NCBI GenBank assembly: GCA_044892525.1
Contig: CM097885.1
Coordinates: 12,960,001-13,024,000, forward strand
Origin: Schmidtea polychroa
Taxonomy: Eukaryota
Reading direction: 5' to 3'
DNA length: 64,000 bases
Shown here: piece by piece, positions 24,848-51,800 of the stretch
Numbering within the stretch: the first letter of the stretch is position 1
Layout: every line of letters begins with the position of its first letter
Notes under the pieces: generated by a model
What the model was told of the DNA's origin: nothing
Databases searched by the model: none
The model's input: only the letters and a program-made list of their open reading frames with translations
Translations under genes and position numbers: made by a program

Positions 24848-27800
24848 TTACTGAAAGACTTTTTTTTGATTTTTATTTAATTTTAACATGGCAGCTTCTC
24901 GTTTAATTTTTAGTTCTTCTTCTTTTCGAATTTTTTCTATTTCGAGTTTTTTAGTGTCGATTTCTCGTTGATGACGAATAATTGCCAAACGAGCAAGGTC
25001 TTCTTGTGCTTGAATAGTTAATCCTTGATCATAGAGTTTATGGGATTCTTCAATTTTCTTTTCCTTTTTCAGGATGTTCCTGGAAACATAATCAATTGAA
25101 CGTTTTTGTAATTTTCCCCATGCACTGGTGGACTAGCAACTATTCACGATTGTTAGACTAACGTAAATTCAAGAAAAATTCAAATACTTGAAAATTTGAT
25201 TCAAAGGAAAACATTAAATAACTAATGTTGAGAAAATTAATTTGTCAAGATAACATTTACCTTCAAGTATTGACTGATCAACTTCTTAGATAAACATTTT
25301 TAGAAAAATTGTATATAACAAGTGAAAACAAATTGACCTTTATTTATTGACCTTTATATTTACAGCTATCAATTTTTATTTTTAATAATTATCAGACATC
25401 ACTAAAAATTAGAAAATATAAAGTAAAAAAACAGACTGCAATCAGAATATCAAACAATTTGTTTAGTAAATAACCAAAATAAGGAACCATCGAATATCTT
25501 ATAAAAAATAGCAGGAACCAAGTAAATAAGCTAAAGGTAAAAAGAACAAAGGATTGATGCAATTGAAGTGGTAAGTCCATGAAAATTTTCTGAGGAAGAA
25601 CCTCGCATATGAGGTGAGTAATAAAAAACATAATTTATTTGTAGTGAAATTTCTAAAGTTAATATTATAATATATAATTTTAATTTAATTTGTTACTATG
25701 TATATTTATAAATACCATATATATTATATATGGTATTTATAAATATACATAGTAACAAATTAAAATAAAATTAAATGTCTAATTAACAAATTTTGTACAT
25801 AGATTTCAAAACATTTATTTTCAATCGCCATAAAATAATTCAAATGATGTAAAGCATACTAGATTTTTGTCATTAAATTATTAAAAATAATGATAAGACT
25901 TGTGCCAGAAAATTGTGTCTTATAAAAAAATTCTTGATCTATAGTTGTAATGAAAATAAATGAAATTTTTAAAGAAAACAAGGTGAACAAAAAGTATTGA
26001 ATTTTATTGAAAAAATGACACCGAATTGATAAAAATATGGGATAGTTAAAATAATATCTATTGATTTAAGCTTATGTTAGGATTTAATAGGTAAATTATT
26101 AGATTATATATTTAGTTGTCGAATACGTTGATTACACAACGATTTTTTAATTTCAAAGATTTTTTAACATTCGATGCAACAAATTCAATTATTATTAGAT
26201 TTTTTATTAAATCACTGATTCTCAACTGAGGATCATGTAACATCAAGATGATCACGAAATGAAAATATAGAAAAGATTATCTGAAAAAAATGAAAACAGA
26301 TCAGAAGCAAATATGAAATGAATGATTGTTAAAAACCTTTTTTGTTAACTGCAATCCTAATCCTATTTTTTTTAATATGACTTTTAAATTTGTTCATATG
26401 CGGCTCAGTATTAGACATACACAAAAGCGAGTAATGATACCATTCCTATATTTAGTTTTGAACGTTGCATTAGACAAATAAAAGCCTTTTTCATATAGGT
26501 AAAATTTGACGAAAATGATTAATACTTTCAAGGTTCTGTAACTAAAATTTTTCATTTATCTCAACAGGAAAGATAAAACTTACCTAAATCTTGCAACGTA
26601 AAAGGTAGTTGTAGTTTATAATATTTTTAATTTATGCTAATTCGTATTTACATTTATCCGAGAGATAATATTTAGAAAATGTTATCATAATTAATATATA
26701 ACGGTCCAGAAATGAAAAAGGTTCAATTGAAAGAAATAATCATCACAACAATAACAAATGTAAATAAAAGACGATAAACAGATATCCAAAATATCTTCTG
26801 CTCCATGAACAATCACTTTTATTGTCATTTCAATATGTAAAAAATACTTATTTGATGAATTAAGACTAAAACTGGTAAATTGAATTAGATATATTGTTAT
26901 TATTATTATTCCTAAACTAATTACTTAGCTAAAATACATATTTTTGCAGCACTCATTAAATTGAAAATAAATATTAAAATGCTTGTCAATAACTATTGTT
27001 CCTCTATATCCAATCATATTTATAAATTACGATTTAATTTTTTTTTATTTTTAAGTTTTTATTAATTTTATAATACTAAAAAATTTATTTCAAATATTAA
27101 TTTTATATATCACGTTGTGGTATTTTCAAATTTTTATTTGTTATATATAAATTATTCATTTGTGCAATGTAATGTAATTGTCGATGTATAGCACGTTTCA
27201 ATGTGTCTATTTCTATACAGATCTTGATTTAAAAGTCGTTCCATTTTTTTCTTAACCAATCTGGTCAATGTACATTATACTAGTACTCTTTTGATCGAAC
27301 CAAAACTCCCATTCCTTATAAAGAACTTTTGCAGTGTGACCGGTCTCTGATGCCACGATTCTCATATTCACAAAGACAAATGCATCATTAATTATAGCAA
27401 CTTGGTATAGAAAAGAGCATAAATTTCTCTTTTCATCAACATATCTTTTCATCCTTAATCAATCCACGAAAGCCTTTCAAAACTCTGTTGTATAAATCCT
27501 TCGATCAAATGTTAACCAAAAGTCGATGACAGCGTTTCCCAAAGTTTTTTCACCGCGGCACACTTTTTGATTTCAAATTTTTGACGGAACTTTATTTACA
27601 AAAATCTTAGAATTTTAATATCTGGAATATTAATATGACCTATAGTATTACAGATGTTGGGCTAGAAAGCAAAATAATAATTTCAAAACATAAGAGGGAA
27701 ACAATAAGAAATAAAATAAAATTAGGAAACCAAGCGAAAATAAATTAAAAAGATAGACAAATAAACAATAGGAATAAATAATAAAAAATTAACCAAAGAG

Positions 27801-48800: not shown

Positions 48801-51800
48801 AATAAGCAAGTCATGGTGAATTTAAATTTTCACAGATAAACCATGAATTTCCATCTAGCATTAATCGTTTAAAATTAAATAAGACTTGAGTTCAAGTAAT
48901 CTTACTATTCGCATTTCGCAAACGTATTGCGTTAGGTATAACTACTTCCAGAATTCCCACTTGTACTCATTTTATCGTAAACCGAATTTTAGCTGATCGA
49001 AATCAAATCATTCCATAAAATTCCACATTTACTCCAGTACGATATTGGCGATAGAACTACCACAATAATTACAAACCACTTTAGCTGCTCATTCACAACT
49101 GGTAGATTACAGTGATTAAAGAGTAATACCAATACAGACGATCACTCGCACGATACACTCATTCATTGAGATAATACTCTGGTACTAAAATCCATATGCA
49201 TGAAAAATAGCATTAGTGATAACTGCACACACATGAGCCGACGAGGAAATTAGTTAATCGCCACATATGTATCCACACAAGACCCATTCCCACCATACAC
49301 GTAAGACATCAAGCGCCGATGAACTATCTGACACTAATAAGATTACACAAACACCAAACTCGGTAGATGGCGAATGTAAAAATTTAATCTCCAAATAAAG
49401 TTGACACCTAAGCTGATAATATCTAGAATACCAAAAATTTCCAATTCTCACTTATCTGATATTAAGATTAATTTGATTGATATAGTAAATTCGAAGTAAT
49501 TAAAGCAATTCTTGAGTGGGGGGGGGGGGGGGTACCATTTTCATGTAAAGTCAATGAACTCTGATATTTCTTTTTCTCAGTGTATTAGAATGAGGTGGAG
49601 GACTCCCATGAACTAGGGTTATTACTGCCTTTATTATTATTGTTATTATTATTATTATGATTATTATAATTATTATTCTTATCATTACTATTACCATTAG
49701 TACTATTAAGATTGATGTTCTGGTTATGGTTGTCGTTATTGTGGTGATTGTTACGTTTGTTGTTCTTGACATTATTGTTAGCATTACTCTTAATATTGTT
49801 ATTGATGGGGTCGTTGTGGTCGATATGAGTGTCATCATTTTTATTATTATTGGGGACATCAGTGTATTACCGATTGATGAATGCTTGACATGATTGGGAA
49901 ATGATGTAACGAGGTATGATGGATGACGTTTGGATGTAAAGAGGAATGATAGGGTTAATGAAAACATTTACATTTCTAGAATGTCAAAAGCTTCAACCAA
50001 TGCCACGATCTTGCGCCCATGCTTTTCCTGCTCTGATAAAAATCAGATGATTCAGACGTTACAAGCACAAATTGGCCTTCTTAAGAAGAAGTCAGATCAC
50101 CTAGAGGGGACGTATTTTTCTCCCACGCAAATGAAAGAGGTGAGGACGAGACTCACCCGGGTGGAAAAATGTCGCGATAATGTACTAGAGGAAAATCGCG
50201 CTTTGCGTACCCTCATTAAAGAGCAGTCCGAGGTGTTACACAAAGTGTTCGTCCGAGCGTCGGTCACAAGAAAGATAGTCAATATTCCACTCGCGGAAGA
50301 AGACAATTTATTCCCGTCCCACCACCTCTCAGGTATCTCGATGGTGAAACCATTGAACCAGGCCAGCTTAAGCCACCCGAGTATTTCTCAGCCGGCAATT
50401 CCAGCCGAAGTCGTCTGTACCGGCACAAGTCGCGCTGAACCCAGAATGGTGGACTTAACAACCCTGGTCACTCTTCCGGAGGTGAAGAAGATCAAGAAGC
50501 GTCGCCAGCCATCTAGGGCTGAGCGTACTAAAATAAGAAGGGCCCTCCAGGCCGAAAGGGAAGCGGCCCTGATCGCCTCTGTTCAACCGCCAGTTCAAGT
50601 ACCTCCGGTAGAATCCCCCTTGCATTCTCTTCCTATCTTCCGGGTAGTCCCGCCCGTCGATTCCTCATGGGAGGAAAATGCCAAAGACATTTTCGATCTC
50701 GATGAGATCTTTGCTGGAGCTTCTCCAAGCACTCTGTGATTATATCTGCGTTGTTTTACAAAATGGTAGCACCTATCAATGTACTTTTCATGTAATAATT
50801 CGTTAATATATTTTTCTTCCTTGTGACTTGTCAAATGAAATGATTTTGAATGCTGGAGTACGATGAATGGTTGATTTGGGGGTTGGATAACGAGTGATGG
50901 AAATAAAGTGTGGAAGAGATGTGGTAAGGCTGGACTCAGGAAGGATAGAGATCGTAGTAACGAGGAAAATATTACTGTTGAATGCTAAATAGAGACAAAG
51001 CTAATGAGTTGAGCGTTGTAGTGGAGTTTGATTGCAAATTAGAGTAATACAGGAGATCTTAGAATGATGATGATGACGTAAGTCCTTCTATCGGCAGTCG
51101 AGTGATGGTTAGGTCGAGTTGCGATGGGGGAGTAGTCCTAAGGCAGGGGCTCACCTGCTCCATCGTAGCTCGCCGACATGGCACAGCACCAACATGATGT
51201 GAATCATGGGTGTCATGTTCGGAGTATGATCGTGTGGGTTTTGGTTGAGGGTCCCATGGAATGATAACATATTGCTTGTGTATTTAGGACTATCAACCCC
51301 TACTGTGGAAAGAGTATTTTTCTGACCCGACCCAAGACCCAGCACAGAAACTTATACAGAGTAGTATTTATTAAAAAAAATAACAATCATACAAAAAATA
51401 AAATAAATTTATTCGATTGTTGATTAATAATATAAAAAAATTAAACTTATGAATGTTATTAGTGCGAACAGTGTTGTTGTTTTTTTTTCCTTTGCAAATC
51501 CTTGTCATATCTGGTTTTATTGTTGATAATTGGATGCACATATCTGCCGAGCAATTCAATCTATTACGATATTTCGTTTTCGTAGAATTATAATAAGAAA
51601 ATCCAGTTTCGCACAAATACGTAGTAAAAAATAGTAAAACTCATACGATTATTTTCAAAAATTGAAAAAATAACTTACCTTTTTAAAAAAATTTATTAAA
51701 ACTAATTTTAAATTCTTATTTTTAATGCGTATTTTAAAACAATATTATTAAAAAAACTGTGGTTTCCCTTTGAAAAAGAATTTTAAATTGGATCGAATAA

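Follow-up and report, generated by a model that had tools for sequence, protein, structure and literature searches.

Solo LTRs of Burro-type giant gypsy elements in Schmidtea polychroa with a conserved gene inside the LTR, possibly encoding a regulator of the element's own RNA

The window analyzed here, a 64,000-nucleotide stretch of the Schmidtea polychroa genome (assembly GCA_044892525.1, contig CM097885.1, forward-strand positions 12,960,001 to 13,024,000), contains two units of about 4 kb, A and B, which have the ends of long terminal repeats (LTRs) and each carry a single open reading frame (ORF). The question raised by this locus is to what kind of element these units belong and what the protein encoded inside them does. 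The reading that we favor, with a probability of roughly 0.42, is that A and B are solo LTRs of the Burro type and that their ORF is a selected, likely spliced gene for a dimeric, arginine-rich nuclear protein, which would regulate the unspliced RNA of its own element.

A (4,151 bp) and B (3,950 bp) begin with TGTTGGG, end with CCCAGCA, and are flanked by 4-bp target duplications, being CTAA for A (27935–27938 and 47675–47678) and CAGA for B (27651–27654 and 51345–51348). These ends, sizes, and duplication lengths are as given in a preliminary description of this stretch, but the units are nested and interrupted: a foldback element lies inside A, and A lies inside B, which makes a three-level nest (Table 1). 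No primer-binding site was found behind, and no internal junction before, either A or B, and as each consists of one LTR with its target duplication, both are interpreted as solo LTRs. The two ORFs (249 and 252 residues) are open and homologous, with 41% identity (E = 4e-59), as the same description had proposed, and the inverted CCAAT and TATA motifs, the acceptors before positions 46401 and 49980, and the conserved 3' motif are also present where it had placed them. Its view that the noncoding parts cannot be aligned was overstated: A and B have the promoter and a GC-rich block in common, and their 3' motifs show 72% identity.

The genome searches were done with the N-terminal ~120 residues of the LTR ORF as the query, at E ≤ 0.001, scoring 150 candidates per search. 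There are 6,106 and 6,500 first-look candidates, and in each search 150 of the 150 scored ones match, so that the ORF family is not a chance match. In one set, 42 of the 150 scored matches make 21 same-strand pairs with a spacing of 26.0 to 26.5 kb, and five paired regions (E1–E5) were opened for inspection. E1, E2, and E5 are elements of 29.3 to 30.4 kb, having LTRs of 3.8 to 4.2 kb that are pairwise 99.7 to 100% identical, with 4-bp target duplications and with the LTR ORF present in both LTRs. E3 is a truncated pair flanking a broken polyprotein, and E4, with a spacing of 10 kb, was rejected as an LTR pair, being a segmental duplication. E1 and E2 have a single open frame of 4,732 codons, in which, for E2, the Pfam matches are, in order, Retrotrans_gag, zf-CCHC, Monjiviricetes_fusion, RVP, RVT_1, RNase H, integrase, and ankyrin; downstream of this polyprotein are a separate RING-MATH ORF (478 codons) and three unnamed accessory ORFs. 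The primer site of E1, E2, and E5, which we take to be tRNA-Pro-like, lies 7 nt behind the 5' LTR, the spacer being TGATTTT. Exact junctions between an LTR end and the primer site are found 139 times in the genome, and exact copies of the 3' motif 328 times.

Several further features of these elements were seen on inspection. The sequence preceding the 3' LTR in E1, E2, and E5, GGGTCCCCGAGTGATT, is not a plain polypurine tract. In three of the four accessory ORFs of E2 (L037), an AG is found 1 nt before the ATG after AT-rich sequence, as in the LTR ORF, which hints at a set of spliced subgenomic RNAs. Three LTR ORFs (G000:C2:177680172, 177706384, and 177732596) follow each other at 26.2 kb, and one LTR (L169:3176-4983) is preceded by an internal junction and also followed by a primer site; these are tandem elements sharing an LTR.

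The A subfamily is tied directly to an internal region through locus L042, which is 90% identical to A and is a 3' LTR preceded by 2.5 kb of internal accessory ORFs, and the LTRs of E1, E2, and E5 share 70 to 81% DNA identity with A in blocks. The link of B is weaker, with ~45% protein identity to LTR ORFs ahead of gag-pol. Among 51 B-type loci, both ends were found in 22, no end within the stretch in 25, and an internal 3' junction precedes four; all 22 loci with both ends are single units with 4-bp target duplications, 21 of them exact. Upstream of the four 3'-LTR candidates, a same-strand accessory-ORF match is seen only at L154, where the 30 kb further upstream contain distant pol fragments only, and L153 has a polyprotein fragment on the opposite strand. 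A pattern that puts the primer site behind a B-type LTR end has no match in the genome. In further LTR subfamilies, whose proteins are 43 to 69% identical to those of A or B, the primer site comes after the LTR, and in four of the seven that were opened a polyprotein start lies behind it. Because related LTRs flank a full gag-env-pol region, A and B are not single-gene transposons, and it is nearly certain that they are solo LTRs of older Burro-type subfamilies. This favors the first of two possibilities considered in the preliminary description, overlong solo LTRs that contain an accessory gene and were integrated by an integrase of the gypsy type, over the second, nonautonomous single-gene elements; as to whether the units occur paired or solo, the related LTRs form the near-identical pairs around gag-pol (99.7–100%), and A and B themselves are solo.

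The parent element is of a known family, the Burro/GYPSM1 type, and is not new; the primary descriptions are reportedly those of Jurka in 2007 and of Grohme et al. in 2018. E1, E2, and E5 resemble this type in their total length of ~30 kb, their long paired LTRs, and their thousands of copies, and the 4,732-codon frame resembles its single frame of ~4,700 to 4,900 codons, in which Gag, CCHC, Env, protease, reverse transcriptase, RNase H, integrase, and ankyrin regions follow each other, with env between gag and protease. The MATH/TRAF cargo has its counterpart in the RING-MATH ORF of E2, which lies outside the polyprotein. This likeness concerns the plan described for these giant gypsy-like LTR retroelements of planarians in the excerpts used of PMC6431247. 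The BIR, BCL2, and dUTPase domains of Burro were not detected in E2 by Pfam at E ≤ 0.01, the Burro report having used HHpred for some of them. The excerpts of PMC6431247 do not mention an LTR-internal ORF, intron, or promoter for Burro, unlike what is seen here. More widely, no such ORF, intron, or promoter anatomy was found described in the excerpts of PMC6431247, PMC8532177, PMC11410931, and PMC13524379, the last of which, as excerpted, has no mention of Burro; nothing on the ORF, introns, or promoter layout inside Burro LTRs was found in the literature searched, and the original Burro description, its supplements, or the Repbase entry may annotate it. The new part is therefore the gene inside the LTR, the element family itself being already known.

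Purifying selection on the ORF of this gene is indicated by the ratio of nonsynonymous to synonymous substitution rates (dN/dS), for which variants were classed against the commonest codon of each column, shared and private variants being kept apart, and the N- and C-terminal parts of copies chosen as best protein matches were analyzed separately. For the shared variants of 20 A-type copies, dN/dS is 0.09 to 0.10 (codons 1–117) and 0.31 to 0.34 (codons 117–249), and for their private variants it is 0.63 to 0.79, which is indistinguishable from neutral (p = 0.10–0.24). For 12 B-type copies (two of 14 were dropped as truncated or interrupted), the shared variants give 0.05 and 0.22 to 0.23 and the private variants 0.24 to 0.60, still below 1. 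Whole-ORF values for 20 pairs of intact natural copies are 0.05 to 0.22 in the 15 pairs with estimable dS, five being saturated. These figures (0.05–0.34 for shared variants, 0.05–0.22 for subfamily pairs) are not near 1, the value that the preliminary description had set against its own proposal. The full frame is kept in 12 of 20 A-type and five of 14 B-type best matches. Constraint on the shared variants, together with private ones closer to neutrality, points to selection while the lineages replicate and to decay of the solo copies, and the LTR gene thus appears to serve the element and not a host locus. We consider it very probable that the LTR contains a functional element-level gene.

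The splice signals of this gene are widely conserved. An inverted CCAAT and TATA promoter typically lies 1.8 to 2.7 kb upstream of the start codon, and a YAG is present at most 14 nt from the ATG in 100 of 103 copies, as compared with 994 of 3,241 control positions, despite subfamily differences in the upstream DNA. Of 86 promoters, 72 have a second donor-like GTAA(G/A)(G/T) at 140 to 290 nt after the TATA, against 51 of 344 control windows. No copy that lacks the large intron was found among the 103 ORF copies; L147, which has a short promoter-ATG distance, was considered and rejected as an intron-less copy, its acceptor being kept and its promoter match being a chance motif. A search with B listed no RNA data set that contains it. 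Contigs of four putative RNA runs cover the ORF and the conserved blocks without resolving a junction. One contig joins 48285 to 50012; its intervening length is uncertain, the relatives diverge there, and it was not counted as a splice. From the comparison of genomic copies, the LTR gene is likely spliced.

Where the RNA starts is suggested by a direct repeat of ~25 nt, of which two units are present in 61 of 88 promoters. Unit 1 ends at AG/GTAA in 61 of these 61, and the second unit is the end of a mini-intron of 44 to 55 nt; in A, the last 23 nt of the mini-intron repeat the first exon, and in B the inferred first exon (47788–47813) is followed by a 54-nt mini-intron (47814–47867) ending in a first-exon copy. 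Of the 48 copies measured, 43 have the repeat starting at TATA+27 to +33, where an initiator-like TCAGT or TCACT is found, and the units of the repeat are 96% identical within a copy and 58% between copies (27 distinct). Among the remaining 27 promoters, 14 are without exactly one unit relative to their nearest two-unit relative (in E1, E2, and E5, both LTRs are in the same repeat-unit state). This pattern is best explained if the reverse-transcribed RNA starts at the repeat, which would place the transcription start at TATA+31, ~390 nt into the LTR, and the ORF in R/U5 and not in U3. On these sequence grounds, U3 would be only ~390 nt and R plus U5 ~3.7 kb (E2), with the ORF downstream of the start site.

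The properties of the encoded protein were examined in an alignment of 32 sequences from the own genome. A conserved CxxC and helical N-terminus is followed by a variable linker, an arginine-rich motif is found in 24 of the 32 proteins, and a (V/I/S/M)(V/I)DLT motif is present in strict form in 18 (shuffled mean, 0.06), near residue 209 in the A group and 156 in the B group; an acidic tail, W-E-E-x-A-x-x-F-F-D-L-D-E-L, is present in 27. The AlphaFold model has helices at residues 15 to 40, 46 to 98, 177 to 192 (the arginine-rich motif), and 238 to 241, the remainder being disordered, with a mean predicted local distance difference test (pLDDT) score of 63. When two copies of residues 6 to 118 are modeled together, a parallel coiled coil with a score of 0.55 is obtained (best control, 0.01), in which runs agree in at least 87% of contacts with a pLDDT of at least 76. 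In the reference sets, 21 of 30 solved microbial pairs and 17 of 29 eukaryotic pairs attain the mark used for this score, and none of 23 single chains does; the model supports, as a prediction, that the LTR protein dimerizes.

Outside the genome, a profile search of 1.84 billion representatives gave 18 proteins, of which 17 share the helical core, mostly within chimeric models having unrelated host domains; P0017 was rejected as a relative, as it looks like an unrelated CxxC-coiled-coil match. The one distant homologue tested matches the own-genome ORF family at only 31 to 47% identity, from which the distant homologues are taken to come from a related organism. Several of them read N-R-R-R-R-E-R-R, and I-x-I-D-L is present among them. 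In P0001–P0016 and P0018, the ORF is fused to unrelated host domains (transporter, phosphatase, Sec62, actin, and others), and these 16 to 17 fusions in the related genome may be either annotation artifacts or cases of exonization. A word-indexed protein search with ORF A returned 286 candidates, none of which was scored.

The 3' end of the LTR folds into a conserved, covarying RNA structure. In 30 diverse copies (of 31 nonredundant ones, from 79 matches), analyzed on the sense strand, 97.8% of the cells of the two hairpins are paired and 17 of the 34 pairs are changed on both sides; none of 500 shuffles is as high, and slid controls pair at 34 to 48%. The fold z-scores are −3.2 (A) and −3.4 (B). 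An Rfam search over 44700–51400 gave one chance match (E = 0.21), and the 3' motif fits no Rfam family. Judged from its sequence, this structure could be a packaging, reverse-transcription, or export element. For the GC-rich block inside the large intron, the RNAalifold consensus is weak (−12 kcal/mol), and no structure is claimed beyond one hairpin.

Rev-type proteins use an arginine-rich motif together with a structured RNA element, and with such proteins complex retroviruses solve the problem of intron-containing RNA. A role of this kind, like that of Rev or of CERV, fits best with an arginine-rich dimer, a spliced RNA, and an element with a covarying RNA structure, and as a mechanism we put it at somewhat less than even odds. 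Splicing of the short exons onto the acceptor at the ATG would give the mRNA for the protein, the ORF being efficiently translated only once the ATG has thus come near the cap. The genome that is packaged would be the RNA with the large intron retained, as is suggested by the finding that no LTR copy examined is without this intron, and the LTR would be rebuilt from this RNA. As a prediction, the arginine-rich helix would bind either the structured RNA that closes the LTR or the GC block of the large intron, and would thereby license export or read-through of the intron-containing RNA. It is possible that reverse transcription of a spliced 5' end runs up to the cap and that the resulting first-strand DNA then jumps to the 3' repeat, which is unspliced; at this jump, looping out of the intron would lead to its loss, and pairing of the DNA end at the intron 3' end would let exon 1 overwrite the end of the intron. 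Solo LTRs would arise through LTR-LTR recombination and then decay. A wider, rather tentative proposal is that the Burro type belongs among the complex retrovirus-like elements, its LTR forming a regulatory gene in full, with a U3 of ~390 nt, an intron-bearing R/U5 of ~3.7 kb, a Rev-like protein, and the structured RNA that this protein targets; the first strand would then be copied over kilobases to the RNA cap before the jump, leaving the 25-nt repeat as a scar.

The nearest precedent is the CERV protein of the Caenorhabditis elegans gypsy element Cer1, which is made from a spliced mRNA, multimerizes, and is needed for export of the unspliced genomic RNA (excerpts of PMC10309623). The gypsy background is shared, and the LTR protein, which would likewise come from a spliced mRNA and is predicted to dimerize, is proposed to have the same role; the LTR ORF differs in having ~250 residues and in lying wholly within the LTR, with which it is duplicated. 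With Rem of mouse mammary tumor virus (MMTV) and Rev of human immunodeficiency virus, the LTR gene has in common the arginine-rich motif and the covarying RNA structure, RNA binding being predicted.

Several observations weigh against this reading. Neither sequence nor fold homology to Rev, CERV, or any named family was found, CERV not having been compared directly: Pfam gives weak subthreshold matches for the 32 members, mostly to coiled-coil families, with REV in none of the 32; a PDB sequence search with the 32-protein profile gives one chance match (E = 0.66); the viral fold search gives nothing at E ≤ 0.001; and the Atlas search is without a usable match. The distant homologue P0005 has a subthreshold Pfam REV match (E = 0.0013; 19.1 bits versus a cut-off of 22), which may be compositional. 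A leucine-rich export signal, judged by eye against the consensus, is matched in P0003 and P0010, and, unlike in Rev, no clear one is seen in A or B, the conserved tail resembling an acidic activation helix more than an export signal. Most compensatory changes in the hairpins split the A and B clades and thus reflect few independent events, and the picking of best protein matches has lowered dN, mainly in the N-terminal figures. The AATAAA position is not conserved in B-type LTRs and does not fix the R/U5 boundary, and no full gag-pol was found beside a B-subfamily LTR. Loss of a single repeat unit could also be due to slippage between direct repeats; slippage, however, does not account for a homogenized tract that begins at the initiator.

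The solo LTR could instead encode a transcriptional transactivator or antisilencing factor, similar in role to Tat, Tas, or Tax, in which the coiled coil dimerizes, the basic motif is a nuclear-import or nucleic acid–binding patch, the (V/I/S)(V/I)DLT motif binds SUMO, and the acidic F-D-L-D-E-L-L tail recruits coactivators to the LTR promoter. We regard this role as somewhat less likely than that of an RNA regulator. It would make use of the acidic-hydrophobic tail of 27 of the 32 proteins, presumably like the tails of viral acidic activators, and of the DLT-type motif of 18 of them, although 12 to 14 of the 32 are without this motif. VIDLT and VDLT are SUMO-interacting cores of PIAS1 and RNF4 (excerpts of PMC3901395), and nuclear PIWI represses planarian LTR elements, including BURRO1, at the chromatin level (excerpts of PMC8532177). 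A DNA-binding fold, however, was found neither in the AlphaFold model nor by the viral fold search, and the packaging of intron-containing RNA would be left unexplained. The RNA-regulator and transactivator roles are not mutually exclusive.

The RNA-regulator reading places the gene behind the start site, and its position has also to be weighed against an improbable arrangement in which a very long U3 contains the gene together with a promoter of its own, as in the case of MMTV sag, with the genomic RNA starting near the structured 3' motif and the protein acting on the host. The usual LTR layout, with a short R/U5, would be kept, and in A-type LTRs the AATAAA lies just upstream of the structured motif; MMTV does have a U3 ORF driven by a U3 promoter (excerpts of PMC9412291), and Burro elements carry other host-directed domains (excerpts of PMC6431247). 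Against this stand the placement and the within-copy likeness of the repeat units described above (TATA+27 to +33 in 43 of 48; 96% versus 58%), and no second conserved promoter was seen by eye near the 3' motif. That A and B are self-contained nonautonomous elements moved by an integrase in trans, or host-domesticated genes, is very improbable and already largely refuted. The 22 of 22 both-ended B-type loci (of 51) that are single units with 4-bp target duplications would agree with it, but LTR-LTR recombination leaves solo units too; likewise, gag-pol beside the B subfamily was not found, but an internal 3' junction precedes four of the 51 B-type starts, one having an accessory ORF upstream, and in the A subfamily L042 is a 3' LTR. 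The private variants are below neutrality in the B subfamily (0.24–0.60) but do not differ from neutral in the A subfamily (0.63–0.79, p = 0.10–0.24), and the full frame is kept in only 12 of 20 A-type and five of 14 B-type copies, even among best matches.

LTR-encoded proteins are rare. A known example, MMTV sag, sits in U3 (excerpts of PMC9412291). It resembles the present case as a protein ORF inside an LTR with an LTR promoter, and it differs in encoding a superantigen, whereas in the present case, an invertebrate gypsy element, introns apparently separate the ORF from the start site, which is 2 to 2.7 kb upstream of it. If the favored reading is true, a gypsy LTR that houses, behind its transcription start, a spliced gene under selection is a new layout, and the LTR gene is a candidate for how a 30-kb env-carrying element gets its intron-containing RNA exported or evades silencing by PIWI. 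Solo LTRs, which tend to be regarded as scars with no more than a promoter, here hold a whole coding gene, and on the wider proposal above the thousands of genomic solo LTRs would be dispersed, potentially expressed copies of a trans-acting element regulator. The mini-intron repeat would be a record, in sequence only, of start site, splicing, and strand transfer.

Table 1. Parts of the nested solo LTRs A and B and of the foldback element, in window coordinates
Feature	Position	Strand	Remarks
Solo LTR B, 5' part	27655..27938	+	TGTTGGG end; A-rich leader, inferred U3
Solo LTR A, 5' part	27939..29159	+	Inserted into the A-rich leader of B
A promoter	28285..28345	+	Inverted CCAAT 28285, TATA 28314, inferred start site ~28345
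A first exon and mini-intron (inferred)	28346..28417	+	Exon 28346-28368; 49-nt intron 28369-28417, CAG/GTAAG ... CAG
A second donor GTAAGG	28566..28571	+	Inferred start of large intron
A GC-rich block inside large intron	28776..28931	+	Conserved; homologue in B ~48140-48290; one short hairpin conserved
Foldback	29160..44738	.	Unrelated secondary insertion into A; 15.6 kb; AG...CT inverted ends; 6-bp target duplication TGCGAG
Solo LTR A, 3' part	44745..47674	+	Rest of large intron, acceptor to 46400, ORF, 3' untranslated region, structured end CCCAGCA
ORF A	46410..47159	+	249 residues: CxxC and coiled coil (13-98), arginine-rich (~174-192), SIDLT (209), acidic-hydrophobic tail (~230-249)
AATAAA in A	47287..47292	+	Position conserved in A-type LTRs, 26/35 in one 20-nt bin
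A conserved 3' motif	47423..47605	+	Two long RNA hairpins; compensatory changes across subfamilies
Solo LTR B, 3' part	47679..51344	+	Ends CCCAGCA
B promoter, inferred first exon, mini-intron	47728..47867	+	CCAAT 47728, TATA 47758, initiator-like TCAGT ~47789
ORF B	49981..50739	+	252 residues; directly behind acceptor TTTCTAG (ends 49979); domain plan as A, MVDLT at 156
B conserved structured 3' motif and LTR end CCCAGCA	51075..51344	+	

The foldback is largely palindromic. Many copies of its end exist (1,494 candidates, with matches in 40 of 40 scored), often as inverted pairs 9.5 to 16.5 kb apart; its ends and size are, in our estimation, reminiscent of Polintons/Mavericks. Each arm has one ORF fragment with an IAP-like C-terminal RING finger, recognized by eye (32132–32431, plus strand; 40474–40761, minus strand). 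At 24454–24531, 78 bp have TGTTGGG...CCCAACA ends resembling the LTR termini, without a target duplication, and this may be chance. Elsewhere in the window, an unbroken diacylglycerol acyltransferase frame of 340 codons (Pfam DAGAT, E = 3e-124) is present at 56059–57081 on the minus strand. A reverse transcriptase frame (RVT_1, E = 8e-12) at 60229–61928 on the plus strand is followed by a GIY-YIG-like stretch, seen by eye, in another frame, and is a probable broken Penelope-like element. Two overlapping GC-rich frames of 307 and 247 codons, without a significant Pfam match, are found at 18937–20527 on the minus strand and are probably one broken transposase-like gene.

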